Part shown: piece after piece, positions 23,141 to 63,955 of the stretch
Position numbering within the stretch: the stretch's first letter is position 1
How the letters are laid out: every line of letters begins with the position of its first letter
Origin: Lingula anatina
Lineage: Eukaryota; Animalia; Brachiopoda
Assembly: GCA_051362555.1 (NCBI GenBank)
Contig: CM120645.1
Location: 3,534,001-3,598,000, forward strand
DNA length: 64,000 nt
Direction of reading: 5' to 3'
Made by a program: the position numbers and the translations under genes
Notes under the pieces: generated by a model
What the model saw: only the letters and a program-made list of their open reading frames with translations
What the model was told of the DNA's origin: nothing
Database searches by the model: none

Positions 23141-23475
23141 CTATGATGCTACAGCCTCCACATTGACGCTGTTGTAATTGGGGGATGGGCGGGGAGAGTC
23201 AAAGTACCTTTTGTACTGATGACAGCTGCATGCAATGTCGGAGTCGCACTTGCACCAGTCTGGACTCGTACTGAGGTGGCGCTCAAAGTCCAAGAGCTGA
23301 CCCATGAAGTTAAAGTTCGGTGAAATGTTGGGCTTGCACTTCTTCACATAGTCGTAGGCATCATTGAGAGATAGATGGCAGCGCTGCATGAGGTAGGCGA
23401 CAGTAACGGTGACAGACCTGCTGACTCCGGCCAAGCAATGGACAAGGACGCCACAGCCCTTTTCTCTGGCTTCAT
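23141..23475 (-). CDS. DUSP7: DUSP6/7-like coding exon 3: catalytic signature and C-terminus
   Basis: Acceptor TTTCAG|AT at 23476/23475 gives D-EAREKGCGVLVHCLAGVSRSVTVTVAYLM...ISPNFNFMGQLLDFE, then TAG at 23141-23143. The three exons total 1110 nt = 369 aa plus stop. Confidence 0.96.
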
Positions 23476-26400
23476 CTGAAATAACCAAAGGAACAGGAAC
23501 ATAAACATTGTGGTGGAAGTGGAGAAAAATAAAATCCAAGATACAATTGTTCTTGTTTTTCTAGCAAAGTATCAACAAATAGCACATGTACTTCATTGTT
23601 GTTATGTTTTGACTGAAAATAACCCATCACCACTCACAGTGGATAAACTGTATTGTGTGGTTCAATTTATCTGCGGTCAAAACAAAACCTTAATTCTACC
23701 CAATCACATTAAATCCCATGACCAAATTCATTTGGACCAAAAGACGTCAGAAGCATGGAAAACCCGATTGTTTAAATATTCCCCACGCGACTTTTTTTCC
23801 CTCTTTATCAAAACCACAGAATTCTACTCCCTTTTGATGCAGAGCTAAAGGAGTCCTCATTTCCATTATAGCCAACTGACACGAGTGTTAATAACCATTC
23901 AGAAACATGCACAGACTACAAAAGTGGCTGGAATTAAAATGGACCAGCATAAAACCAGGAAAATAGCTAGGCTGCCGGAAATCACTTAGTTGTAGTGCAC
24001 TGTAAGAGCAAGAGAACCAAAACAACAAGTAATCAAACAGTTTGAGCTTTCAGCGCTATTTAATGGAATTTAACGCACGGCACGATTCCCCGCAAGCAAC
24101 CTCAAAGTGCCCCATGTCTGATGTCACTGAAGGAGACCTAAACGAATCATCATTATCAACCTAAACCATTCACTTGGCGGTCCCGTGGGCATTCAAGCCA
24201 GCAAAACAAAAATCTAACTGAATTATTGAATGGGAAAAAAGGTTGAGCCAGGGAATAAATGGATTAACTAAACATCGAATTGTTCTGCAAATCGGATAGC
24301 TGCAGAATCCATGCACTTAAAATGTTGAAGTGCGTTTGCACCCATTTACATGGTCTAATTTGTGTTACTTAAAAAATCAAACCCAAATTATTGATGAAGT
24401 CCAATGAAAAAAAAAAAGAAGAAGAAAATTATTACATTAACATAAATATCAATAATAAAAATGCTGCAAGACTTCTGAAAAGTACCATTTTTTCTATTTG
24501 GTACTTTCATCACCCACTGGTTCAGTTCATGTCTGCTGAAGAATGGATCCATTTTACTGAGTGTAAACCTTCCTTTCCTGCTGCTGCCCATCTTATGTTG
24601 AGAGTGATAAATGGGATAGGCCGTTTTAATAACAATAATAACCAAAGGGGATGATGATGATTACATCTCCTTAGAATTCCCATTTCCTGTTGTGGACTGC
24701 CCCAAACTGATTAAGTAAAGAACCAGCCTCAAAACTTAGATTTATATATATACTGGTGTGCTACAATGGCTAGGCTGGAGGATTCACAACTTTCAGTTGG
24801 TTTTCCAATTTCACAACTTGAAGAAGTGATATAATTACATAATTAACTAAATTTTAAAAAGGATGAGAGGCTTAAAACCTCCACCTGTGAGGCAAATAAT
24901 CCAGTTTAGCACAGGATAAGAATGAGCTAGTTCTGGGAATTTTTAAGTTAATGACAGAATTCTAAAAAACTTAATGGCTTAATTAAGGATGTGACGTCAA
25001 ATTGGTACAATATAACAGAAATAACAAGCTTCTAATTTTTGACAAATTTGAAGATTTGTGAAAAAAATTGGATTAGCAATGACAACTGCGCAACTGCTCA
25101 GCAAAAGTGACGTTCAGAAACCATGCCACCAAAAGCCACTGCAATTCAATAGGCACTGTTATAAAGTCCATAAAGGTCTCAGTATTATCAAACAATTCAC
25201 TGAAGAAGAAGTAATTTTTTCTCATAGTCAGAGCTGGAGCGTGAACTGATGTGTATTCTACTCCCCTCACCCACACAACTCAAAACTATAGGCCGTGTTT
25301 TCATGTGTCATATCCATACACACAAACCGTTTTATCCAACCTACAAAATACCTTTTACATTAATATTGTGAGTTTCAACATGGGCTGTGAGCAAACACAA
25401 GCTTCCTTTACGCACTCTGCCATGCATTCAAATTGACCTAGCGGATGAATGGCCGCTTTACAAATTTGGTTTGCAAAGCCGAGATGAAAACCTTGTTTTT
25501 CCTCCCGCCTCAAGGGTCAAGGGGCAGGAAATGCATACTTGAGAGGCTGAAAGGCTTGCAGAATGGAGTTTATCAATGCCATACAATTTTGGCAGCCCTC
25601 TATATTGTTGCCCTCGGCACAGAGCTTCTCCACAATGTCCAGGTGGGTTCATTTAATACTAAAGAAATAAGATCCGGGTCAAACATCCCCCATCATCTTA
25701 ACCTGTCACAAACTCTATGAAGATTAATATGATTACTAAGCAATTTTCAGTTGAATTTGGTGTTTGCTTTTTTTTTTTCATCATTCTTCTCACACCTGTT
25801 AGAGAACATTTCTAATCAGATATGTCTGTGGTATTACGTATTTTTTTTTCCTTTTAAGAGGTAAAAATTTGTTTCAGTGAACTTACACATAGAATAGTTC
25901 TTGAATGATATCCAAATGAAAACCAGGCTTAAAAGAACTTTTTTGCCTCACATAAAAAAATGCCCAGAAAGTACTATGGGACTATGCCACATAACCCCAG
26001 CCTGTATTTCATCATAACATTTATATGGCAGTCGCGCACTTTATCCATTTAGGACGTTCTTTGGTTATGCATTGTTGCTTCGATTGTCCTTGGCCCTACT
26101 CTGCTATTCACCAAGATGGATGGTCTCTCGTTCTACTCTCTCTTCCAGCCGACAGCCTACATTAAGTATGTTCAGATGGATGTTCTTAAAAGTAAAATCC
26201 CTTTAGGTCCCAATTTCATCACACCAGATTAATTTGTGTGGTTTTGTATATTTGTGATGCAGGTAGCCATTTCTATATGCAGACAGCATGCCCCAATGGT
26301 TGTAAACATATACCATTTTGCCTTGTACATTTAATTTGATGGTACAGTGGTGACTTCATATAAACCCAAAATGGTTTTGAATTTGAGCTAGTCTAAATTC

Positions 26401-28264
26401 AGTATTAATCTACAGCTTTTATTAGTTTCCCTGTTTTTTTTACTGATAAAAGATTGCTGAAGGAAAAAAAAACTTTGTAACTAATATCCTAAAACAACAG
26501 AGCAGGTTTAAGTTTGTTGGCATTTTGTTTTCAACTTAAACAAGAGGAAGTGAGATTAAGCAGTTGTTTTTTAAGGAAAATTATCTAAGTGTTCACATGT
26601 GGAATACAACCTCCAACATCCAACTTGCTTCAAAACGTTCAACTCTCCCTGAGAAACTCCAAAACAACCATTCACACAAGAAAGTAAATTGTGCCAGACG
26701 TAAAACCTCTGCCAATACATTACTTTCTTCCAGAACCTTCATCTGCATTTCATAAATGCAATAACTCCTTCCAAATCACGCCTGACTTAAAAGTCTGCAC
26801 CTAACATGTGCCACTTGTTTTAACTGGGTAAAACGCTACCAGATTTCTTCCCCTACTTCCCACGGCTGTAGACTCAAATCCTACAGGTGTGTAAAATCTT
26901 TATGCATAAGCCTCAACAGGGCCAAAGATGATTACACAACCAGCACTTGCCATGGATTTCTTACCTGCATTCCCCCCTGAGCACTGGTTCTTAAAGGACC
27001 ACTTCAAAGAGGTATAATCAAGTTGTTACCTACTTGGAACCCCTTCCCCTCCATGTGCATGGAAGACCTACCTATCGCCAGCTATTATTATGGGTCAAAC
27101 AGTGACCAACTGTTCTCTCACTTAAACACCTATAATAATAATACCTGGAAGATCAGGGATTTCCTCCTACACAAAATGTACAGTGCAGACTGAGCTGTAA
27201 GAAAGCCACGACATCATTATAACATCACCATAGCATGTCGTGTAGGGATGATAATTGACTCGCCCACCTTCTTGGACGGATGAAATCAGTTTCAGCATAT
27301 TCCACAGATATATCAGAGGCTGGCTTCACCTCAGGTGAACAGTGAAACCTCTAATTTCTGTATTACCTGTCAAAATTAGGGATCCCTTCAAAAGAAAAAG
27401 TTTTTAGATTTCAGTACGGATTTCAGACGCCATCACGAAAAAAAAAAAAAAGAAAAGAAAACCCGTTACCCCTATCCTAATCTCCTAATCTTACCTGCCA
27501 CACACAATATAACACAGATAAACATAGCTGCAACTTGCGGTTTGTTGGTGGGATGGGAGGTAAACATTGATATACTGATGGGGATTATATGCAATTGGGA
27601 GGGAGAGATGGCTTATGCTATTAGCAAGTGAGTTTGTGGGTATCAGAGAGAGAGAGAGAGAGAGAGAAAAGAACCAAATGAAAACACACTGCCCTATTTC
27701 TACTTATGAAAGACTCCATTGCTCGAAAGTACTGATTTTGTTTTAAAAAAAAAACAGACATTAGCAACACTAAATAAACCTCAGCACTGATGTAATTGGC
27801 TTATGTCTTTCCATATTTGGACATCCTTATTATTCATAAGGAAGGAAGAATTAAGGGCTTCATGACTTAGTTCATCAGATTATCTTAGCAGTAATTAGTC
27901 TGCGGCATCCTGTAATTAAGCCTCCAGGAAGTTGCAGTACGTGCCAGCAATGCTGTGGAGAATTAAGGCCTTAAAAATACCTTTTTTATTAATTTTTCAC
28001 ACATAAATTAAGAAAAAAAGGCAATGGAAAAAGCTGATATTTTTTTATTAACATATAGCATATACAGGCTCAAATCCTTCATATACCATACCATTTTGAA
28101 TGCAAAAAAATAATAATAAATAAATGAAGAGCCCAGTCTATGGGGAATACTAAATATATCGGTTTTCCACACTTTTTTCTGACGTTCCACCTGTTGTGTC
28201 TGGGATAAATGTTTCCATGTTCTGATAAATCATTTTTAAATGGTTGTCTATCAAATATACTTAC

Positions 28265-28651
28265 CAATGAAGGATATTGCTTCAGGGAAATAGACGGACA
28301 AATTCTGGGACCAATGGTCATTTATTGGGATCTGCTTGTACACAATATGTTCATCTTTCTCCCACATATTTGGCAGGTTAGGGGTGACATTCAGGATATA
28401 TTGAATCCCGTGCTTCTTCAAGGCTTCCAAGTCGGCAGAATTCCTTGCATTGCCAAGATAAAGATTGGGAATCACTTCGACAGGTAGCGCGTTGTGAAAT
28501 GGGGTATCCAGCCCTGAGATTTCCCGCGTGCAATTGACATTGTCTCTATCAGACAGCGACAGGTTTCGAAGTCCCATAATAGTACTTGTCTCGTTGTCAT
28601 CGACCCCCTCGCAAAGATCTGGGTACAGCTCTTCGAAGGACTGGAAGCCAC
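28265..28651 (-). CDS. DUSP7: DUSP6/7-like coding exon 2: end of rhodanese domain, linker and start of catalytic domain
   Basis: Acceptor TTTTAG|G at 28652/28651 continues the frame as GGFQSFEELYPDLCE...PVEVIPNLYLG...YILNVTPNLPN...YKQIPINDHWSQNLSVYFPEAISFI. Donor G|GTAAGT at 28264. The exon is 387 nt, so phase 1 is kept. Confidence 0.95.
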
Positions 28652-29590
28652 CTAAAATTTAAATCCCAAAACATGACTCCTGGTAGCCAGGGAAAGGAAA
28701 AATTATATCACCATGGAACTTAAGCTGCCACCTCTCAATCTGAACATTTAGCTCTGTTCCACTTTTTGCTGCCGTGTTGAATTACAGGTTATGGCAAAAT
28801 CAATATAGCAATGCGCCATTCTTGCAAATATATTTTCTAAGACAGCAATATGCTGCAGTTGTACGCGTTTTTAATTTTCTCAATGGTTGTTCATCTTCAA
28901 AGCATTTTTTCTCGGATGGTAAACCGTTATTAAACAATTCAAATAATGAATATAATGATTCATCAATTAACTACCTCTACCCCCCCCCCCCCCCCCAAGT
29001 CTCCTGAGCCTGCGGCACCCGTTTGAATTGTTTAGAGACTATACACTGTTTTGACGGAAATAGATTATCTCGAACATAATAAAAAAATATGTCTCTTGGT
29101 CACAACCTGGCACACAATTTGATTTAAAAGAAGATCTCGCCTGCGGGGATCGAGTGACGTCCTAGTGGTTTATGACCCCTTCGCGAGGCAAATTTTATAA
29201 ACACCGGAAACGTGCCGGCGCTGTGACCGCTGCGATAAGAAAGATCGGGTTTTCGCGTCAGCTATGGATTTTTAAAACGGAAATGTACTCCCAACATTCC
29301 AAAACACCCAGTTGACTTAAACACATGTTGACGTCTAGTCACATTGAACATATCAACGCAGCAACAGTCGCGTTGGAAATCTGGATTCCATTAGCGGTCC
29401 CTACGGTTAAAATTGGCAAGTTTAAAATACATAAAAAGTCGCGGAGCGGACGATTGTGAAATACCATGACGTAGACAAGGAAGACTTAACAGCAAATACT
29501 GAGGTCGCATGATAGCGATTTGAAATCTTAATGTCTCCGGTGATGAATTAGATAAGGCGGTAATGACAACCCACACGATTTTCAACTTAC

Positions 29591-29978
29591 CTTGTAAAAC
29601 CCGTACTTGGCAGCCGTCAACTTTAAGCTTCTTCACGAGTAAGTTAATAATACTGGTCGGATTAGCGTTCAAGTCTTTTGTGTTGTCGTCGTATAATACT
29701 ATCGTGTGTGTTTTACATTTCTTGTTAAACTTCTCCTTTCCTTCATTGCACTGAATAACAGAGGAAACAGACAGGTTGCCCGATTTTAATCGCCGGAGCA
29801 TTAACGTTGGGATGAACAGATTAATGGCCCCTTCGACGTGAGACTGAATAAAGTCATTCTGAGCTCTCAAGTCTAGCACCAGGGCTCCTTCCTCGCTGTT
29901 AAGTCGGCGTCCAAGCCATTCTGGCGTACAGTAGTCAGTCGCACTCATGTTGGCGTTGTCAATGTCGAGGGAAGGCAT
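29591..29978 (-). CDS. DUSP7: Dual-specificity MAP kinase phosphatase (DUSP6/7/9, MKP3-like), coding exon 1: rhodanese/Cdc25-homology domain with kinase-interaction motif
   Basis: ATG at 29978. Translation includes LVLDLR...SHVEGAINL-FIPTLMLRRLKSGNL (KIM; human DUSP6 has IPGIMLRRLQKGNL) and IVLYD. Ends VLQG at donor G|GTAAGT (intron starts 29590, phase 1). The symbol stands for the DUSP6/7/9 pro-orthologue. Confidence 0.93.
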
Positions 29979-30229
29979 TGGAGGTGGAACAAATTTCGGT
30001 AGATTTTCGTGTTACTTGAGTCCTGGTTTAAACGACAGACTGATCGTCTCGTCGTCTCCGTATCGTCGTTTTCCTATTCCAGTTTATATCAGAATAAATA
30101 TACTTCACGTAAATATAGCTTGGTGTCTTAACACTGGCTGGATCGGTCCGAAATTGTAGTCTTAAACACTGATTTTCTTCGGGAACGATCAAGTTCACTT
30201 CAGCCGTGTATATGTTGCCTGTAATGGCG

Positions 30230-53001: not shown

Positions 53002-53652
53002 TTAATTCTTATTTTTCTTCTCATCCCTTTTCTTATTCTCTTGCTCCGTCATCAGTTGTTCAAAATCCCTCCTGAGAAGGGCGTCGTCGTGCTTGGTGGC
53101 GGCATTGTTATGGAGCAACTGAACCAGCGTTTTCCAATCTTCCTCGACGAACGTGCGCACGGTGACGTGCTCGCACCTCCACAACGCGTGCAGCTTCTGC
53201 ACGTGCTCCGGTTTGCGCACGGCGCAATCACAAGGCAGGCCTTTACACGACGGTCGGGAAACCTCATACAAGCCTCTAAACACAATCTCTAAATCAATCG
53301 ACAGCTTCTTCTCGGTTATTATTCTGCTGAAGTTCAAGAACAGGGAGCTGCAGCGGGCGCAGGGGGACCAATTCAAATAAAAACGAATTTTCTGGGGTTT
53401 CAGGCTCTTGATGTTTTTTGCCAGGAAATTCACGGCCTGCTCCTCGGCGTGGCCATCTTGGTTATCATTGAAGATGAAGGAGCGAGGCAACTTCTCCAAC
53501 GTGCACTTGAACACGCAGTAGCTGTCCGTCGGCCAGTTTCGGTCAGGGAAGTGAGGACCGCTCCTTTCAAAAGTGTCCATGATGTCGGTCGCGGATTCGA
53601 AAAGAACAGAGTGCATAGCCATGGCGGTGTCGGCGGCACTCACTGAATTCAT
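53002..53652 (-). CDS. AID/APOBEC-like cytidine deaminase, single domain (gene A, ~216 aa)
   Basis: Motifs GHAEEQA, FYLNWSPCARC, LEIVFRGLY and TFVEEDW. The TTG start in the ORF track (53706) is the first base after a strong acceptor (TCTTCTTTTTGTCCCACAG|). First ATG is at 53652; a strong-Kozak alternative ACCGCCATGG is at 53622. Confidence 0.88.
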   Translation of the reverse strand: MNSVSAADTAMAMHSVLFESATDIMDTFERSGPHFPDRNWPTDSYCVFKCTLEKLPRSFIFNDNQDGHAEEQAVNFLAKNIKSLKPQKIRFYLNWSPCARCSSLFLNFSRIITEKKLSIDLEIVFRGLYEVSRPSCKGLPCDCAVRKPEHVQKLHALWRCEHVTVRTFVEEDWKTLVQLLHNNAATKHDDALLRRDFEQLMTEQENKKRDEKKNKN

Positions 53653-54068
53653 CGGCGTCTTGTTAAATGGGAAATTATGTGATCTGCTTCTGCGTTGTGT
53701 CACCAACTGTGGGACAAAAAGAAGAGGGAAGATGAATTGTTTAACTGCATTTGAAAGAACACTGGATATATTTCCATTCCCTTTTTCACTTTCAAATTCT
53801 TGTCTACGCTTTTGATCAACACGGCGAAACCTTTTGTACGGAAGTTTAAAAAATTGGTAAGAAATTATATAAATTGACTAGTAAATTTTGAAATACTGCT
53901 TTGAAATCACGGTCCTGTGGCACCTGTTTTTTTTTTTTTTTCAAAGCTACCTTCAATACATACACCAAAATAAGTAACTCAAAATCACAAGCAAATTATC
54001 AGACTACTAAAGAAAATTCCATTATGTTTCTGAAGTTATTACAGAGACAAGATTTCACGCCCACTCAC

Positions 54069-54139
54069 CTGAATCAAACAACTCCTCTAAGAAAAATCAA
54101 GATCCTGCTTGCACGGCCTCGGCGCTTGCTCCCCTTATA
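54069..54139 (-). promoter_or_regulatory. Putative TATA box and short non-coding first exon of deaminase gene A
   Basis: TATAAG at 54139-54134, then an ATG-free stretch ending in consensus donor CAG|GTGAGT at 54069/54068, which pairs with the acceptor at 53707. Confidence 0.6.
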
Positions 54140-54786
54140 CCCTCCGCCTTCCACTCGCTGTGTATCACTGACGGACAGACGCCTTTTAAATCCCAATATA
54201 TAATGTTCTATAGTATACCGTATAAGCTTTCCATAGACCCTTTACAAAAATACAGGAAACTTGTTCCAGGCCAGTTAACACAACGTGCTGGCAGGGCAGT
54301 TGTTGTGGAACCTGTTCCCATATATTGAACCTTCAATCGTGACATCTTTAATGCACGTCTCCTTCGTTAATGTGGTAAACTTCAGTCTTCAATAGAAGTC
54401 GCAGGAATATTCCACCCCCATAAAACCGGTACTTATCTCAGCCAGGTACTTCTACCTGGGCTAGACCATGGCGCGTTCCTTAGAGCATGAAGAAAATCCC
54501 AAAGGAAAAATGGAACTATTGTTAGGGAGACGGTAAGTTTTCTCTCAAATATAGATCATTGCTGCTACTAAAATTATTATTGAGCTGCCTGCTGTGTTAT
54601 TCACTCGAATATGTATACGTTTTTTTCAATCAGCAGTTATGCTAGAGTAACAATGAGGGCTTTGAATCTCAATGTGAAAAATGTGCTGTCTGTTAGGTGT
54701 ATTAAGTGGCGCACACCAGATGCAATTGATTTGTAACGCACACATTAAATATGCTTGACAGGGGCACTATGATCCTGCCGATGCCC

Positions 54787-54953
54787 CAGGGACGGATTTA
54801 GGCCGTCTTCTGGGTCTTCCGGAAGACGGTCAGGTTTTCAAGTTAACATTGAGGTGTGTCGTATGTTTTCTGTCAGAAGACGGTCAAAATGGAGGATTAA
54901 TCAACAAAGATAATTTGGGAGACTGTCAGAAAATATCTATAGATCCGCCCCTC
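54787..54953. mobile_element. MITE family 3 (CAGGG.CGGAT / ATCCGCCCCT termini) between gene A and the double-domain gene
   Basis: Imperfect terminal inverted repeats CAGGGACGGATTTA and TAGATCCGCCCCT about 165 bp apart. No clear target-site duplication. Confidence 0.45.
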
Positions 54954-55012
54954 GATGGTGTCTACGAGAAAGAGCCCTTATAACGTCTTTTGCGAGAACA
55001 GTTTTTGAAACG

Positions 55013-55560
55013 CTGACAATGTCTTTACTTCTACCCCAATACCTTCATTCTCACTGACTGGCAGGGCGGAATAGCGGTTGAAATATTAATTCAATATCAA
55101 GCGGAAAGAGAAAATAACATTTTGCGTTTCATTCTTTAATCCTGCCAATACAGAAAAAAATGATACACAAGTTATTCCGTATTATACATTTATTATTCTG
55201 ATAATAATCAAAATCAGCATACATAATGAAATGTGAATCCTTATTTAAAAAATATTTAGAAATATCATTGGAACGTTTTTTTTTTCGCTAGCACGATAAT
55301 GCAGACAATTACAATTAGACACATCATGTGAAACAGCAATTAGATACATCATGTGACAGCAATTAAACACATCATGTCACAGCAATTAAACACATCATGT
55401 GACAGCAATTAGACACAGCAATTATGCACAGCGATTACCTTTAAATACCCAGTTCATTCATCATTCTAATAATAATACCTAACATTGAAATTATGAAATT
55501 CCTATCAAAAAAAGTAATGAACAGATCATTTAAATACAATTTAGATAGATGCACTTATTA
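55013..55560. repeat. Duplicated deaminase 3'-end block (copy 1), containing minus-strand AATAAA at 55189-55194
   Basis: CTGACAATGTCTTTACTT...ATGAAATGTGAATCCTTATTTAAAA...AATATCA recurs at 60115 and 60409. The right boundary is approximate. Confidence 0.85.
55305..55432. repeat. ~22-bp minisatellite (ACAGCAATTARACACATCATGTG), about 4-5 units
   Basis: Directly visible tandem units with no spacers. Confidence 0.85.
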
Positions 55561-55699
55561 GATTTGTTAATATGATATAAAATAAAATAGATATATGCAT
55601 AAAATAGATATAAACCTTAGCAGCCTTTACGGTCATCTAGTTGTCATTTATATGAACGAGGTTTGTAAATTGTTTATATTGTACATTAAGATATGATTA

Positions 55700-55702
<3 letters not shown>

Positions 55703-55770
<68 letters not shown>
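55703..55770. repeat. Compound (TC)n(TA)n microsatellite
   Basis: Directly visible, in the putative 3' UTR of the double-domain gene. Confidence 0.95.
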
Positions 55771-55772
<2 letters not shown>

Positions 55773-56007
55773 ATTTTATCTCTTTCTTTCCTTAAAAATG
55801 GCTTTATGCAAGTTCATGTTAGATGTTACCCTAAGATTTTAAAAGAAGTCACCATCTATACTATGTGACAAATGACTGTTTGTTGATGTTCTTTAAATAC
55901 GTTTTCTTTCAGTTAATTTACGCATAATCATCAATTTTTACACCACAACAGTCAAACTGCATGTAGATATCAATACAACCAGCATGGTTTGTAAATACCC
56001 ACTGTGA

Positions 56008-56605
56008 TTACTGATACTGCATCCACCTAAAATCATCAGCAATGTCGCCATCGATGGAATCCCTATGCCATCGCTCGATATTGTCAAACAATCCTTCAAG
56101 ATTCTTCCAATCCTGCCTATTAAAACTTCGCACAGTGCAATAAGGTTCCATACGACTAAGGGCACGCAGTCCTTCGGGGCTCTCATCGACGCAACCGCAA
56201 TGCACCGTGCACGATGGTCTTCTGTTATAGCATATGCCCCTAAAGACGATCTCTAGAAAAAAATCCGGCACAGTTTCCTTCTCCTGTATCAAAGCGATTA
56301 AAGCATTGCTGCAAGCATGGCACGGGGCCCAGTTCAAGTACATGACGATTTTCCCGGTTTTTTGGCGCTTTTGTAGGTAACTTATCGCATGGTTTTCGGC
56401 ATGCATTTCATCAAACCCAGAGGAGGTATGCATACTTTGAAGGTCGTCTTTGCGAAAATGCAGAATAAGATGAGTTCTAGGTTTTGAATTCGGATAAAAA
56501 TGAGGTCCACTGCTTCTAAAGTCATCAAGGATACCTTCAATGTCCCCCGTCATGTATTTCAAGGGTACAAGAGCCCCGTATTGTGTAGGAGGTCTTGCTA
56601 TGTAA
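56008..56605 (-). CDS. AID/APOBEC-like deaminase, C-terminal domain exon of the predicted double-domain gene
   Basis: Acceptor TTCTTTCTTTCATCAG| at 56606. The first base completes GG+T (Gly), then the frame is open as YIARPPTQYGALVPLKYMTGD...SGPH...MHAENHA...MYLNWAPCHAC...LEIVFRGIC...SFNRQDW...IADDFRWMQYQ*. Confidence 0.85.
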
Positions 56606-56803
56606 CTGATGAAAGAAAGAATCTGCGTAGACAGATAAAATATATCTGCACTTTACGTAACTGCAAACTATTTTTTAAAAGCATACTATTAATTGGCTAT
56701 CATCACATGACGACAAGCAATAAGTTCTCTTCCAGTTTACATGTGCCAGGACATATGTAGATATGGATACATAAAACATGGTTTCAACTTTGTAAATACT
56801 TAC

Positions 56804-57498
56804 CCTTTATATTGATTCCTCAAAATCGCTACTAAATCAGTAGCAACTTCTACGTCCATTTCATCATTTGTCGGTTGATCGTGAATACTCAACTCTTCAA
56901 AAGCTTTGTTGGGGTCCTTTTTATCGAGCAATCGTTCAAGATCTTGCCAATCCTTCCTATTAAAACTACGCAAAGTGCAAAAAGGTTCCAATAGGCTGAG
57001 GTTGTACAGTCCCTCGGGATTGCCTGGAGCCGTTTGACATTTGCATTTTTGTGTACAAGATTCTTTTCTAATTTTGTATACGCCCCTAAAGACGATCTCC
57101 AGAAAAAAATCCGGGTCACTTCTTTTTGTCTCTACCAATTTTTTTAACTTGCCGCTGCAAGCACTGCATGGGGACCAATTCAGGTACATGACGACTTTTT
57201 TCACATGTAGGTTTTCTAGGTAAGGTATCGCATTCATTTCGGCGTGGACACCGGTTGTATTGTAGGTATACGGGTCAACGGGTCTACTCCAGGTATACAT
57301 ATCTGGAAGTTCGGCGTTTTCGGGAAAATGCACAATAAGATGAGTTTTACCCGTTGGCCACGGCCTGCCATGTGGCCCACTGTTTGTAAAATCATCCAAG
57401 ATATTTGGGAAGTCTCCCGACACTTCTATTAAAGGTACGACTTTAGACATGACTGGTGTACGTGGCGCTGTCGATAGGTAACTGGTAGAGTAAGCCAT
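56804..57498 (-). CDS. AID/APOBEC-like deaminase, N-terminal domain exon of a predicted double-domain gene
   Basis: ATG at 57498 follows acceptor-like TTCAG|GTGAGAA with an in-frame TGA just upstream. Motifs SGPH, VHAEMNA, MYLNWSPCSAC, LEIVFRGVY, SFNRKDW. Ends AAA GG|GTAAGT (phase-2 donor at 56803). Confidence 0.88.
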
Positions 57499-58399
57499 TT
57501 CTCACCTGAAGTTAAGGGGGGAATAGTTCTACTCAGACAGGTGAATCGTTATCTGTGGTTTAAATGTATATGAAAGAGAATTTGACTAAACTATTTCATG
57601 GTCACCATTACAATACGGCAAAACAGAAAGAGATAAATAAAGAATAAAAAAGATAGGAAGAAAGAAAAAATTAAATGAAAAAACTTTTATTTAGAGGTGA
57701 GCACATACACTGTATAAGTGGGTCGTACTTCTATAAAAAGCAATCAAAAGATAAACATCCCCTATGTATAGTTGCAAAACAGAAAATAGATTTTTAGAAA
57801 ATAGACTTGTCATGTGAACGGGCCTTTATCCCCACTTATAATTTCAGATTGGCTTATCGTAAGGTTTAATTATTGTTCATAATGGATCGGTAGTTTATAA
57901 GTAGAATTGTTTTGAATATCAGGTGATTGGTGCCACCACTCCATGCATAAGTGTACTTATTGGCATATCATGTGTTCTGATAACCTTAAAGTCCAACGCT
58001 ATCAACAAATCAATAAAACTCTATCCGTCCTGAAATACAATCGTCTTGTATACATAAATCATCGGTGAAAATGAACTAGTACGTGTCTGCCCCATTTAAG
58101 TTAATATAGATAAACATGATGCCAGTAAGGACGAAGCATTGAATATCGACATTTTTGTCTTGCAGCTGCGAAACATTTAAAGTGAAGAAGCAGACTGGAC
58201 ACTGGGACGGTTTGATGAAAAAAACAGTATGATTAGATTTTTCCCCTTTTGGACTGTGTGAACGACGTGTCCTGACCTTCATATTTGGGGTCAAGGACTT
58301 CCAATTTTTATAAAAACTAAAACAGTGCCGGAGGCTGAAAAAATTTATGTCCTATAAAGTACAATCTAGACAGTAACTTGTTCCACTTATAACGCACCA

Positions 58400-58522
58400 T
58401 AGTTAATTACCCCCTTACAGCTTTTAGTAGGCGGGACAGACGCTTAAGCCGGCTAAGATGACAGTAATCTAGTGAGACTCCCCACAGGGATAGATCGATC
58501 TTAAATCTGTGGGAATGGGGTC
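58400..58522. mobile_element. MITE family 1, truncated copy abutting the LINE fragment
   Basis: Closely similar to 13944-14066 (TAGTTAATTACCCCCTTACAGCTTTTAG...GATAGATCGATC...TCTGTGGGAA..GGGGTC), followed by TAA. Confidence 0.75.
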
Positions 58523-59085
58523 TAAGACTGAGTTGATGTGGTTTACATCAAGGTTCAAGGCAAATAGGAAAAATGCAACAAACGCCAACATTTGGATAGG
58601 AGATCTTACAAAACCATCTAGTTCTGTAAAAGGTCTGGGATTTACCCTCGATGAAAATAGCACTATGGAGAAGCGTGTTTCTGGAGTGTGTAAATCAGCA
58701 TCTTATGCACTATGGCGCATTGGAAAAATAAGGAAAGTGTTAAATAACCAAACCACTGAAAAATTAGAACATGCATTTATATCATCAAGATTAGATTACT
58801 GCAATAGTCTCCTCTTTGGTATATCAGGTTAAAAATTACAAGTTATTCAAAACTCAGCTGCAAGACTGGTTTGTCAAAGTTACACACCAATATCACTCCC
58901 ATTCTGAAAGGATTGCACTAGCTGCCAGTGAAGCAGAGGATTGATAATAAAGTACTTTGTATTATTTTTAAGGCGATCCATACACAGAGACAAAATTTAT
59001 TTATCTGATCTTATCTGTTTGAACTCACCACGGCGGTCCACACGTTTTCATACTGAGAACGACCTTATTTTAGAACATTCTGTGT
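58523..59085 (+). mobile_element. Decayed 3' fragment of an L2/CR1-clade LINE ORF2 (region C-terminal to the RT core)
   Basis: KTELMWF...VKGLGFTLDEN..M...CKSASYAL.RIGKIRK.L...HAFISSRLDYCNSLLFG, then after stop/frameshifts KLQVIQNSAARLV and LKGLH*LPVKQRIDNK. These match the SRLDYCNSLL / QNxAARL / LHWLPV motifs of L2/CR1 elements. The right boundary is approximate. Confidence 0.88.
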
Positions 59086-59126
59086 TAGAGGGGATCTGAG
59101 AGAAAGAGAGAAAAAGAGGGAGAAAG

Positions 59127-59222
59127 ACTTACATGAAAATTGTGAGAGCCGTCTTTTTTAATATGGAGTCACTTCTTGGTTAGCTTTTGCAACGAGTCAC
59201 TTCCTGGTTAACTTTCGCTTTC
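59127..59222 (-). promoter_or_regulatory. Putative promoter/first exon of the double-domain deaminase with IRF-E/ISRE and duplicated ETS/AP-1-like motifs
   Basis: On the minus strand: GAAAGCGAAAGT (59222-59211), AACCAGGAAGTGACTC (59209-59194), AACCAAGAAGTGACTC (59181-59166), AT-rich TATTAAAAAA, and donor CAT|GTAAGT at 59132. Confidence 0.45.
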
Positions 59223-59339
59223 GTAAGTTTTAGCTGGTACGATCGAGTTGCTTTCATCCGTCCCACTGCGGCAGGTGTTTTCCTTTCCACATGACTGCAT
59301 ACCCCACCTCTCCCCTCTGCAATATGTATAGCTGTCTGG

Positions 59340-59690
59340 GTGGGAGATCTTACAGTGAAAAAATAACACACGGAGCACTATCAAGTTTATTTCGCCGAAT
59401 GCGGAGCCACTTATTAAACATTTCCAGATAACTGAGCCCCTTAGGCTAAATAAAAATGTACCAAAACCGGAAGCAGCCACGTCATTTGGGATTGTGTGAC
59501 ATCTTTTGCAACCAAAACAATAAGTTTGGAAAATGTAACTGGGTTATTTACATTGCGTTAAGATTTCAATAACTAAGACTGCGCTCTCTCCCAGCTTCGC
59601 TATTTTAACCTCGCAATAATTTAGTCGCAATAATTTACTAAACTTAGAAGCCCCTCAACCGACTCTTGAACATTTTTTCTGATAATCCTT
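59340..59690. repeat. Duplicated upstream block (copy 1)
   Basis: AGATCTTACAGTGAA...CACACGGAGCACTATCAA...AGCCACGTCATTTGGGA...CCCCTCAACCGA aligns with 63610-63955. Confidence 0.85.
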
Positions 59691-60099
59691 CTTACTAAAA
59701 ATCGTAATTGAGTGTAATTTTACGATGTGACCACCTTTATCTATTTGTTGCTGTGCACTTCCCTGTAATTGTTACTTGTACGTACAATAAAAGAAACGGT
59801 CCTATGGGACGTCCTATTCTCTTGATAAAATAACCTTCCTAAGGTTCATTAAAATAGATCTCCAGCTTTCTTAGGGTCCATTGCCAAAGACAATATCGGT
59901 CTACGTAGCTCGACCCAACCCTGCGAGGCCTTTCCCTGAATGCAATCAGTTTAACAGGTGAACGCGGGGTTAACAGGCGTTGAGTAGAATACAAAAAAGC
60001 TAGAGATTATCTGATTTACTGAATACACTCCCCAAGAGTCGGATCGATATACATAGATCGATAGTGTCGACGTGAATGAGCCCTTATAGTGCCTTCTGC

Positions 60100-60830
60100 C
60101 AATGACAATGACTTCTGACAATGTCTTTACTTTTACCCTTATACTTTCATTCTCACCGTCTGACAGGGTGGAATGGCGGTTGATATATTACTTCAATATC
60201 AATCGGAAGGAGAAAATGATACTTTGCGTTTTATACTCTAATCCTGCCAATAAAGAATAAATGATACACAAAGTTATTCCGTTAAATACATTTATTATTT
60301 TAATAATAATCAAAATCGGCATACACAGTTACAATGAAATGTGAATCCTTATTTAAAATATATTTAGAAATATCATTGAAAAGTATTTTAACGCAATGAC
60401 AATGACTTCTGACAATGTCTTTACTTTTACCCTTATACTTTCATTCTCACCGTCTGACAGGGTGGAATGGCGGTTGATATATTAATTCAATATCAATCGG
60501 AAGGAGAAAATGATACTTTGCGTTTTATACCCTAATCCTGCCAATAAAGAATAAATGATACACAAAGTTATTTCGTTATATACACTTATTATTCTCATTA
60601 TAAGCAAAATCAGCATACACAATGAAATGTGAATCCTTATTTAAAATATGTAGAAAATATCACTGATACGTGTTTTTTACGTTAAACAAGATTATGCAGA
60701 CGATGACGATTAGATAATGCACAGCGATTGCCTTTTTTACACCCAGTGCATTCAACATAATAATAACAACAACAACAACAACAATAATAATAATAAAGAT
60801 AATAAAATTATCACATTCCTATCAAAATAA
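60100..60830. repeat. Duplicated deaminase 3'-end block (copy 2), containing a 294-bp tandem duplication
   Basis: CAATGACAATGACTTCTGACAATG starts at both 60100 and 60394. The units are nearly identical and homologous to 55013-55275. Confidence 0.9.
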
Positions 60831-61003
60831 TGATTTATATATGATTTATATAATTTATATATGTCGAATATAATCACAGCAGTTCAATAAGAAACGTATA
60901 AGATATGTTTACAAAAAATTTAACATATCATGCCAATAAAAATCCTTTAAAATTACTAGATAAATACATGGTGTTATTAATTATGATATAATTAAATATG
61001 GTA

Positions 61004-61005
<2 letters not shown>

Positions 61006-61071
<66 letters not shown>
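61006..61071. repeat. (AT)n microsatellite
   Basis: Directly visible. Confidence 0.97.
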
Positions 61072-61073
<2 letters not shown>

Positions 61074-61289
61074 TATTCCCTCCACCACGAAAATGTTAAC
61101 ATCCTTATCCTAAGTCCAATACCGCACAAGTAAAAATAATGAATAAATCATTTCATTAACATTTAGATACATGCACTAATTAAAATTGTTAACATGATAA
61201 CATTAAGTTGTTAACATACTTCGTAGTCTTTTTGAAAAGAAAATATGTCTGCAGAACGTTATCATGACGTTGCTTTCTGGCCACAGATA

Positions 61290-62096
61290 CTAATACTGAT
61301 GGTGACACATATTCCATTTAAAATCATCAGCAATTATTTTGTCCATCCTATAATTTAAAATCATTAAACATTTCTGCGGACATCAATCAATAAGAGCATT
61401 GTATAAAATTGCCAACCGTTGATCTTGTTCCTATGAAATCCACTAACAATCTTTAAGCAATTTGAAGATGTTGTCTCAGGAATTCCCAATCCTCCTCACC
61501 AAACTGACGCACAGTGCAAGGTTCCAATTGACGGAGATCATCCAGACCCTCACCACCGTAGTACAGGCCACGATACACGATCTCCAGCGAAAACTCCGGG
61601 CCACTTAACTTTGCCAACATGGGGCTACAATCACGGCATGGGGACCAATTCAGGTACATGACGACTTTTGTGACACCTCGGTTCTTTACATCTTGTAGGT
61701 AAGCTCTCGCTCTAACTTCGGCGTGCTTTCCTTGAGGAGTATTGCGGACGTACATAAGATCACCGTTTTGGGGAATATGCAGAATAAGATGAACACGGCT
61801 TGGGGGGTTATGCCCGTTGCTTAGATAACTGTCTTCATAGTCTTCATAGATATTTTGGAACTCATGCGCCACTTCTGACAAAGGTACGACTCCAGCAGGA
61901 ATATCAATAATGCAGTCAAAATATTAAGGATACACATCGCATGCATTAGGGAATTATGAGACATTGCTTTCAAGTTGTGTCGGCCGTATTTGATATACGG
62001 ACTAGTTGGTCCGAGGATCATCAGTTGTGAAGGCAACCTCATTACAGGTCGGAAGAAGGGGGCGGTTCTTGCATGGACATATTTACCAAGTGGCAT
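61290..62096 (-). pseudogene. Fourth AID/APOBEC-like copy (gene D): open catalytic core with disrupted termini; probable pseudogene or truncated paralogue
   Basis: Core 61453-61881 retains KHAEVRA, MYLNWSPCRDC and LEIVYRGLY. The ATG at 62096 (after acceptor TTGCAG|GAA) is out of frame with the core, whose frame is closed upstream by TAA. A homologue of the terminal helix (MDKIIADDFKW, 61346-61290) lies beyond the stop in another frame. Confidence 0.6.
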
Positions 62097-62419
62097 TTCC
62101 TGCAATTTTACAACATTATTAGTTGATTATGTAAAATGATGGTAAACTTGTTATCGTGTATTGTGTAATAAAGTTTCAAAAATGGAAATAAACTCATATC
62201 ATTGCAGTTTGTCAGATTCAATCATTCACTATGTTCAGAATCTCAGAATGGAAGAGATTGGACATTTAACACTGCTCTGTTGATATTTTTCCCATCTCAT
62301 CAATTTTCTTAGTTGATCATATAAAAACGGCAGAAAACTGTTAATTTTGTTTTATGTTAAAAATTGTTAAAAATGGAAAAAAAACATTTCAGAACAGTGC
62401 TGCCTCGTTTACATTTTGG

Positions 62420-63090
62420 CATTTTCAAGTTGTGACTTTGAAGTTCCATGGGCCTGAAGACCTTTGCTAGTCACATTTTCTGAATATCCATTATACTAAT
62501 ATTTTATTATTAAAGTTGATGGTCATTATGCTGTTAAACATTATGTAATATTGCATCAAAATTTGAAAAAAAAACTATTTTGGGCACTGCTCCCATGATG
62601 ACCATTTAAGAAAAACCATGTCATTTACTGTTCTCAAACTTACAGGGAAGAAACATGGGACTAAAACACAGCTTCAGTAGGAAATACAGTCTGTTTGGTA
62701 ATTCTTACTGCCAGTTAAACAGTTATTTTGTGAAAATTTAATTTTTCACATATTGTCATTTTCAAGGTGTGACTTTGAAGTTCCACGGGCTTGAAGACCC
62801 ATGCTAGTCACATTTTCTGAAAATCCATGATACGTATATTTTATTATTAAAAATTGACGGTCATTATGCTGTAAACCATTATGTTATATTGCATCAGAAT
62901 AGAAGAAAACACAATTTTGGGTGCAGCTGCCATGATGACCATTATGGGAAAACCATGTTACTTATGATTGCCAAACTTTCAAAAAAGAAATACAGGACTA
63001 AAATGCAGTCTGAGTTGGAAAAGCAGTCTAAGTGACTTCTTTTTCTGGAAGTTATACATTTTCAAAGTGTAAACTTGTCACATATTTTAA
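62420..63090. repeat. Diverged ~337-bp tandem repeat (two units and a trace of a third)
   Basis: CATTTTCAAG.TGTGACTTTGAAGTTCCA.GGGC.TGAAGACC..TGCTAGTCACATTTTCTGAA at 62420 and 62757; weaker CATTTTCAAAGTGT near 63057. Confidence 0.8.
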
Positions 63091-63609
63091 TTACATAGGT
63101 ATTACCTGTTGAGGATAATTAAAATTTGATGTTGAATTTGCAGTTTAACATAATGTATTTTTGCATCAGAATTGACAGTAGCCTATTTTGTGCATAGTTA
63201 TTTCCTGTCTTTTGTCTGTACATTTGACAGCTTTGCTGCCTTGTTTTTCAATTTCAAGGTAATATTACATGATTCTAACCGCATAATCACCACTAAGTTA
63301 ACATTATGAACTACAGGTAACACCCGTATTTAAAATTGTAACTAGCCTCACGGTTCAGGTCCGTGGAATATCAAAGTCACACAATGAAAAGGAAAATATG
63401 TTTGAAATCCCAGAACTCCAAGATAAAAATTCATATGGGCTGGTTTTGACACAAGGACTGTTATTACTCGTAAGGAACATCTTTGTAATATTGAGAATTA
63501 TAAGTAAAACGTTTTTCCTTTGACGCTGTTTACAGAAAAAGAAGTGCACTGCGACAACTACACATAAAAACGCCAACGATTTTGGCTTTTACGCAGAGCG
63601 GTCGGTTGG

Positions 63610-63955
63610 CAGATCTTATAGTGAATGATATATAGCACACGGAGCGCTATCAACTTTATTTCGCTGAATGCCACACCCCTTGTTAAACATTTACATATAT
63701 ATCTGAGTCTCTTAAGCTAAATAAAATACTATATACCAAAACCGAAAGTAGCCACGTCATTTGGGAAAGTGTGAAATCTTACATAACCAAAACATGAAGA
63801 TTGGGGAGTTTAACTGGGTTATTTCTATTGCGTTAATTTTTCAATAAATAATTCCTCTTTCTCTCTACTTCACTTTTTTAACCTGTACGCTCTTATTTGT
63901 TCAAAAACTGAATTTGGAAACCCCTCAACCGATCTTCGAACATTATTTTGATAAC
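63610..63955. repeat. Duplicated upstream block (copy 2)
   Basis: AGATCTTATAGTGAA...CACACGGAGCGCTATCAA...AGCCACGTCATTTGGGA...CCCCTCAACCGA aligns with 59340-59690. Confidence 0.85.

Follow-up and report, generated by a model that had tools for sequence, protein, structure and literature searches.

What does a cluster of deaminase domains in the brachiopod Lingula anatina encode: four separate immune genes, as a first look at the sequence suggested, or something already published? We examined a 64,000-nt stretch of AT-rich animal DNA (GenBank assembly GCA_051362555.1, contig CM120645.1, positions 3,534,001 to 3,598,000; hereafter the window), for which an earlier note had proposed a tandem cluster of four rapidly diverging AID/APOBEC-like deaminases acting in innate defence. 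All four domains, here D1 to D4, are real, but they form three units and not four genes, and two of these units are published: D3 and D2 belong to a single gene, and D4 is not intact as assembled. The locus very probably consists of LaAIDL1, which is spliced and encodes two domains, LaAIDL2, which encodes one (D1), and D4, a likely pseudogene that probably stems from a tandem duplication of the LaAIDL1 unit.

Four AID/APOBEC domains on one strand

The four domains lie within 9 kb, all on the minus strand, in these open frames:

53005-53652, minus strand, D1
56011-56604, minus strand, D2
56803-57498, minus strand, D3
61456-61923, minus strand, D4

Each carries HAE, YLNW[S/A]PCxxC, LEIV[F/Y]RG and FxxxDW, including the HxE...PCxxC zinc-binding catalytic motif of AID/APOBEC deaminases. 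Every domain matched the Pfam families APOBEC_N, NAD1 and SNAD4 above the curated cut-off, the best E per domain across AID/APOBEC families ranging from 7e-10 to 4e-8. A tblastn search of the whole window with the four domains confirmed their common orientation and found no fifth deaminase domain. The conserved motifs and the placement of each core domain in one exon, both described in the earlier note, were borne out as well. The copies are 33-49% identical to each other, and GC content at third codon positions (GC3) is 0.70 in D1 vs 0.42-0.46 in D2, D3 and D4.

Among the intact domains only D3 was folded. Its AlphaFold model (predicted local distance difference test, pLDDT, 85; predicted template modelling score, pTM, 0.84) contains helices 1-6, from H30-38 to H209-231. 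The closest structures were AID (Z 18.9, root-mean-square deviation (rmsd) 2.5 over 169 residues), APOBEC3H (Z 18.8) and APOBEC3G (Z 18.6), with rmsd of 2.5-2.7 over 169-176 residues across the three. Among CDADC1, dCMP deaminase and ADAT-type folds the best Z was 7.3; ADAT and dCMP deaminases reached 5.4-6.8, and ADAT2/3 5.4-5.6. Similarly, APOBEC3 proteins occupied the first 18 of 51 matches in a PDB sequence search. The domains belong to the AID/APOBEC deaminases.

Two units are published genes

Searched against 1.84 billion representatives, a profile of the four domains retrieved 271 relatives with E of 0.001 or less. By far the strongest were Lingula anatina "AID-like deaminase 1" (AWK77801.1) and LOC106167175; LOC106167165 came from a second search. 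The protein spliced from D3 and D2 is identical to XP_013401332.1 (LOC106167165) at 408/430 positions (94.9%) and to the cloned AWK77801.1 at 364/425 (85.6%). D1 agrees with XP_013401343.1 (LOC106167175) at 210 of 216 residues and with the cloned LaAIDL2 (AWK77802.1) at 212 of 216 (97-98%). A search with D3 alone among proteins of 127-406 aa gave no match, because the true protein is longer than this bound; a search among longer proteins found it in full.

Both intact genes are therefore already known, having been cloned, expressed and assayed in 2018. LaAIDL1 and LaAIDL2 are the names given to these RefSeq records by Liu 2018 (PMC5956068), the accessible sections of which also describe the two tandem LaAIDL1 domains. 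In that study both transcripts are most abundant in the digestive tract, which for LaAIDL2 holds in one of the two animals. Mutation of E. coli reporters by LaAIDL1 reached 49% and 10% of the human AID level in two assays; LaAIDL2, with no significant activity, is discussed as inactive. According to the accessible parts of Krishnan 2018 (PMC5889660), the Lingula AID/APOBEC deaminases (AADs) lie in one region, number 6, vary between individuals, and fall in a lophotrochozoan-echinoderm clade with a second zinc site predicted from loops 1 and 7. Fig. S10 of that study aligns the Lingula domains in this loop-1/loop-7 zinc clade, and additional LaAIDL1-like domains, on scaffold LFEI01001070.1, appear in the alignment. 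The novelty implied by the earlier note thus falls away, and the double-domain protein and the probably dead fourth domain had escaped it.

LaAIDL1 is a spliced double-domain gene

The LaAIDL1 unit comprises the following features:

54952..55577, minus strand, 3' flank block with AATAAA at 55194, 75-84% identical to 60058-61199
56008..56605, minus strand, exon 3, C-terminal domain D2 and stop, covered about 2-6x by reads of RNA run X17, 96.5% identical to the C-terminal half of XP_013401332.1
56606..56803, minus strand, intron 2, 198 nt, phase 2, GT-AG, supported by X17 reads
56804..57505, minus strand, exon 2, ATG at 57498 and N-terminal domain D3, supported by X17 reads and the AlphaFold model
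57506..59132, minus strand, intron 1, 1627 nt, GT-AG, with two high-copy transcribed repeats and a presumed LINE-like (long interspersed nuclear element) fragment
59133..59330, minus strand, non-coding 5' exon with a putative 5' end, containing a candidate IRF-element-like 12-mer and an ETS-like word
59330..59685, minus strand, upstream, promoter-side block, 76% identical over 369 columns to 63597-63954

A consensus donor (56803) follows D3 and a consensus acceptor (56606) precedes D2, both in phase 2, and the join is in frame and yields 430 aa. Four RNA runs (X11, X13, X14 and X17) were mapped on 55780-60395. In X17, 6 reads with 4 different starts cross the joint 56605/56804 and skip the 198 nt, 3 reads connect exon 2 with sequence matching 59138 onward, in the 5' exon, and both coding exons are covered at about 1-9x. 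Given the spliced reads and the in-frame product, D3 and D2 are one double-domain gene. The AATAAA at 55194 is the only one between 54600 and the LaAIDL1 stop. We also considered a three-domain transcript running through D4, D3 and D2 and rejected it: LaAIDL1 has its own 5' exon, an in-frame stop precedes its ATG, and no donor is listed between helix 5 of D4 and the stop.

The 5' exon contains an exact match to an IRF-element-like 12-mer (59211-59222, minus strand) and an ETS-like word at 59205, scored against what we take to be the IRF-element and ETS consensus. The 12-mer has 3 exact matches in the 64 kb; with one mismatch, it has 11 matches in the window vs 5.4 expected (4 of 100 shuffles as high). 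We treat this candidate element as a lead only. A one-mismatch site also occurs at 63738, inside the duplicated upstream block.

Several further observations concern the same gene. A 28-nt tandem duplication lies in the 5' exon (59166-59205), and the X17 reads have one unit fewer. In each of the four RNA runs, read counts on the intron-1 repeats at 57782-57935 and 58398-58551 range from tens to about two thousand; some 90% of these reads continue into unlike sequence, and the 58398-58551 repeat has inverted-repeat joints. Both are probably related to miniature inverted-repeat transposable elements or short interspersed elements. The degenerate fragment at 58494-59000 (plus strand) resembles the C-terminus of a LINE reverse transcriptase; Pfam gives it no support. 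Length is polymorphic at 56412 in exon 3, before the second HAE, where the window is two residues short relative to RefSeq and clone and X17 shows a 3-nt insertion.

LaAIDL2 is a conserved neighbour

LaAIDL2 is represented by two features:

53002..53652, minus strand, coding sequence with D1, single domain, 216 aa, one coding exon
53707..54139, minus strand, predicted 5' end, with consensus donor and acceptor in the sequence

The predicted 5' end would comprise a TATA-like box (54139-54132), a short non-coding exon reaching to 54069 and an intron (54068-53707). The GC3 of 0.70 and the near invariance between sources suggest that LaAIDL2 is an older, conserved gene under other constraints. The window does not encode the alternative LaAIDL2 C-terminus found in the Krishnan entry GDJY01027841.1.

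D4 is probably a decayed third copy

D4 and its surroundings contain:

60058..61199, minus strand, 3' flank of D4, a second copy of that of LaAIDL1, with a 294-nt internal tandem repeat and AATAAA at 60296
61453..61923, minus strand, D4, probable pseudogene, a 156-codon frame with HAE and PCxxC intact
61821..62126, minus strand, upstream open frame of 101 codons, overlapping D4 in another reading frame
63597..63954, minus strand, second copy of the LaAIDL1 upstream block, located 5' of D4 with repeats spaced about 340 nt in between

No Met precedes residue 57 of the D4 frame, the stop comes ahead of helix 6, the loop-7 cysteine insert is deleted, and the residue aligned with the loop-1 His is a different one. 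The frame ends after helix 5, and D4 accordingly lacks the complete AID/APOBEC fold. For the remaining core, the model has a pLDDT of 93, with matches to AID and APOBEC3 at E 4e-8. ATGs in the overlapping upstream frame occur at 62096, 62042, 62021, 61964, 61946 and 61937; the first of these, which the earlier note had taken as the end of the cluster, is in a frame other than D4's.

The surrounding DNA points to the origin of D4. Both LaAIDL1 flanks recur around it, 75-84% identical: 59330-59685 pairs with 63597-63954, and 54952-55577 pairs with 60058-61199. At the 138 sites where D3 and D2 differ, D4 agrees with D3 at 66, with D2 at 26 and with neither at 46. The tail of D4 resembles that of D2 (4/300 shuffles as high) and not that of D3 (93/300). 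These duplicated flanks, the D3-like DNA and the D2-like tail are consistent with a duplicate of the LaAIDL1 unit that collapsed to one domain: D4 probably combines the N-terminal domain of LaAIDL1 with its 3' end, and would then have lost its start, the loop-7 insert and helix 6. Between D4 and D3, synonymous divergence (dS) is 0.47 and non-synonymous divergence (dN) 0.52, a dN/dS of 1.10 (confidence interval (CI) 0.71-1.64); D3 vs D2 has a dS of 0.75. The missing in-frame start, loop-7 cysteines and helix 6, together with a dN/dS of about 1, make D4 a likely pseudogene. At 62130-63410, the expected place of a D4 5' exon, lie the repeats spaced about 340 nt, with an inverted copy at 63333-63408.

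No D4-like protein was present among the best 150 of the 271 profile matches. A direct search found none among 10 candidates, a weak negative in that the LaAIDL1 clusters likewise hold no Lingula run-derived members. The putative 3' end of D4 (60092-60395) received zero reads in all four RNA runs, which is weak evidence. D4 is also absent from the 7 Lingula entries listed in the accessible supplement of PMC5889660, a comparison that excludes Fig. S23 (individual variation, pseudogenes), and we found no description of the third copy in the literature, judged mostly from record listings. D4 is apparently an undescribed third copy.

Clade and known relatives

We compared the domains with the Lop-Ech-Zn2 clade as defined in Table S1 of Krishnan 2018 (PMC5889660). 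D1, D2 and D3 all show the loop-1 His (SGPH) and the loop-7 SC...CxC, that is, SC and two further Cys, and the helix-5 DW with CxnC (n=2-6) occurs in all four domains. D4 differs in lacking the loop-7 insert and the loop-1 His. WP before strand 1 is found in D1 and D3 and not in D2 and D4; relatives vary in this as well. From loops 1 and 7, a second zinc site is predicted in D1-D3. Judged by tree and DNA, D4 descends from this clade, but it no longer fits the clade's definition.

Trees were built with FastTree (181 domains) and as a quick IQ-TREE tree (36-row subset), both with weak deep branches. D2, D3 and D4 group in a single clade (SH-like 98 in FastTree, SH-aLRT 95 in IQ-TREE); D1 falls elsewhere in both trees, without a resolved placement, and synonymous sites are saturated. 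The birth-and-death process suggested earlier fits the LaAIDL1/D4 pair, with its duplicated flanks and decayed copy; neither the tree nor the saturated synonymous sites tie LaAIDL2 to the same expansion.

Compared with the published LaAIDL1 (LOC106167165, XP_013401332.1; AWK77801.1), the window holds the same gene with its two tandem deaminase domains, differing by the two-residue deletion before the second HAE and by Trp70 where RefSeq and clone have Cys. LaAIDL2 (LOC106167175, XP_013401343.1; AWK77802.1) is likewise the same gene, with only 4-6 substitutions. The mammalian double-domain APOBEC3 proteins (B/D/F/G) and the APOBEC3 cluster share with the LaAIDL1 locus the fold (Z 18.6 with full-length APOBEC3G), two domains per chain, tandem copies and a decayed member, but are only 16-18% identical in the structure alignment. 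The domain doubling of LaAIDL1 is independent of theirs, since its two domains are closely related to one another.

Two or more domain matches were found in 19/168 fetched proteins, including oyster and rodent ones, so the two-domain form is not unique to Lingula. For example, gene models of Pomacea canaliculata (P0155) and Crassostrea gigas (P0169) contain three and two deaminase domains, respectively. Three other two-domain relatives (P0011, P0016 and P0017) have one domain without catalytic motifs, an active-plus-inactive layout like that of APOBEC3G, from which LaAIDL1 differs in having both domains intact.

The secreted novel AID/APOBEC-like deaminases (SNAD1-4) are similar in that Pfam SNAD4 is a top match for D1 and D4 and that D4 has a possible leader, out of frame. 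They differ in that LaAIDL1 and LaAIDL2 show, by inspection, no in-frame signal peptide and the hydrophobic stretch of D4 is out of frame; moreover, loop 7 has Tyr and not the Trp of SNAD4 in all four domains, and a canonical helix 5 is present in both models (D3 and D4), unlike SNAD1/2, in which strands 6-7 take the place of helices 5-6. The absence of a signal peptide stated in the earlier note hence stands for D1-D3, by inspection, whereas an out-of-frame Met and hydrophobic stretch lie just upstream of D4.

Divergent versions of LaAIDL1

Across the window, RefSeq and the clones, 78/430 sites vary in LaAIDL1 vs 7/216 in LaAIDL2 (p=1e-8). The excess stems from the clone; between window and RefSeq alone, the counts are 22/430 vs 6/216 (p=0.22). 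The LaAIDL1 expressed in X17 has the clone residue at 12 of the 15 amino-acid differences listed among the best-supported rows and the RefSeq residue at 2. Two deeply diverged LaAIDL1 types exist. They may be alleles or paralogues or come from cryptic species, and the near identity of LaAIDL2 argues against cryptic species alone.

Variation in LaAIDL1 is borderline enriched in loops 1, 3 and 7 (19/84 vs 41/295, p=0.06). Rapid divergence, as the earlier note had it, hence holds between the copies, and its concentration in these loops among LaAIDL1 versions is borderline. The 25 X17 coding variants listed, which are the best-supported rows with 110 further rows left out, comprise 16 non-synonymous and 9 synonymous changes, below the neutral 78% (p=0.09) and with no sign of positive selection. 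Neither the loop test nor the variant test shows positive selection.

Proposed function

Zinc-dependent C-to-U chemistry is established for the AID/APOBEC family. Each domain would use HAE and PCxxC to bind a catalytic zinc and would convert C to U in single-stranded nucleic acid, and in the predicted second zinc site a loop-1 His and three loop-7 Cys would sit beside the substrate groove. Deamination of foreign single-stranded nucleic acid would then serve as innate defence, with birth-and-death turnover in which D4 is the dying copy, and LaAIDL2 would be a conserved paralogue without significant activity in the assay used for LaAIDL1. On balance we favour a LaAIDL1 that is regulated, enriched in the gut and mutates foreign DNA, for example that of viruses or retroelements. 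The clone assayed and the window version are distinct haplotypes or paralogues, and we infer the DNA mutator activity of window LaAIDL1 from this 85.6%-identical clone. The defence role put forward in the earlier note agrees with the published hypothesis, which draws on gut-enriched expression and mutator activity in E. coli; the accessible sections of PMC5956068 show no natural target.

Alternative explanations

Some observations sit uneasily with the account given so far. LaAIDL1 exons are covered throughout in only one of the four RNA runs; X11 and X13 have zero reads on them and X14 a few at one exon edge. At a dS of 0.47, D4 still has all its catalytic residues and 156 codons free of stops, and its core folds confidently; any death must therefore be recent, or the break an assembly error or confined to one allele. 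Protein trees place D4 outside D2+D3, contrary to the DNA counts, and D3 vs D2 also has a high dN/dS (0.68, CI 0.43-0.95), so a ratio near 1 alone is no proof of decay. As for function, in the accessible part of PMC5956068 the Lingula immune role rests on tissue distribution in two animals, and the catalytic mutant was significantly less active in only one of two assays.

How do other explanations of the locus compare? Membership in another deaminase clade (ADAT/TadA, CDA or dCMP deaminase) is practically negligible: the dCMP_cyt_deam_1 matches that speak for it are weak (E 3e-5 to 3e-3) and under the curated cut-off in all four domains, and APOBEC3 heads the PDB matches. The AID/APOBEC call of the earlier note, for which best matches in ADAT or CDA would have been the contrary outcome, stands by a wide structural gap (Z 18.6-18.9 for AID/APOBEC3 vs at most 7.3). 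Four single-domain genes, each with its own specificity, could exist on paper as unspliced products, as the D3 frame stops two bases into the intron and the D2 exon has its own Met, but the spliced reads, the two-domain RefSeq and cloned proteins (432 and 427 aa) and the missing start of D4 make this highly improbable. A more serious contender, though an unlikely one, is that the enzymes act on genes or transcripts of the animal itself, like AID or APOBEC1. Self-editing is raised in the accessible sections of PMC5956068, where activity was at or below that of AID. We infer, however, that the diverged LaAIDL1 versions, the decayed duplicate, the extra copies on another scaffold and the double-domain layout better fit a conflict-driven, APOBEC3-like gene.

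D4 might instead be a live, or recently live, membrane-targeted or secreted deaminase, with the Met and hydrophobic leader serving as its anchor or signal, an assembly error or null allele behind the break that separates leader from domain, and the loss of the cysteine loop suited to an oxidising compartment. The hydrophobic 15-mer at 61937-61893 (mean hydropathy 2.74) is unusual, comparably hydrophobic Met-led stretches numbering 7 in the 127,906 six-frame codon positions of the window; across four thresholds its local chance is about 0.3-2% with Met and 1-10% without. In addition, ATG 61946 lies 56 nt before the VVP codons of D4, vs 57 nt in D3, and the catalytic residues are intact in a core that folds. 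However, the hydrophobicity test was post hoc, the stretch having been seen first, and 2 of the other 6 matches fall in the non-coding flank repeats of the locus itself. Between the leader region and the 5' region of LaAIDL1 no homology is detectable (275/300 shuffles as high), no AG with at least 8 pyrimidines in 14 occurs nearer to D4 than 62531, and the upstream frame (61821-62126) has no Pfam match. The loss of helix 6 requires a second lesion, and there is neither a protein record nor a read at the putative 3' end. We consider an exported D4 very unlikely. We give hardly any credence to a wider scenario in which D4 would have gained its leader and dropped the second-zinc loop and the last helix independently of the SNAD clades, and would be exported or anchored, with live and frameshifted alleles segregating beside two anciently diverged LaAIDL1 haplotypes of about 85% identity that pathogen-driven balancing selection would maintain and an IRF element would switch on. 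What is left beyond the pseudogene and a membrane-targeted form may reflect the assembly or allele state of D4.

Elsewhere in the window

A spliced MAP-kinase phosphatase gene lies at 23141-30011 (minus strand), with one rhodanese exon and two DSPc exons; we take it to be DUSP6/7-like. Rfam has no match in the window.

Significance

As a discovery the locus carries little weight, the intact genes, the cluster, the clade and the individual variation all having been reported in 2018. The additions are small: exons backed by reads, a third copy in decay and signs of deeply diverged LaAIDL1 versions. The assayed clone differs from window LaAIDL1 at 61/425 residues, and activity and sequence preference should therefore be determined per haplotype and per domain before any use in base editors. 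If D4 were exported, it would represent an independent origin of secreted deaminases. The deep divergence of LaAIDL1 beside a stable neighbour makes it testable whether pathogens have shaped an invertebrate AID/APOBEC gene, as they have APOBEC3.

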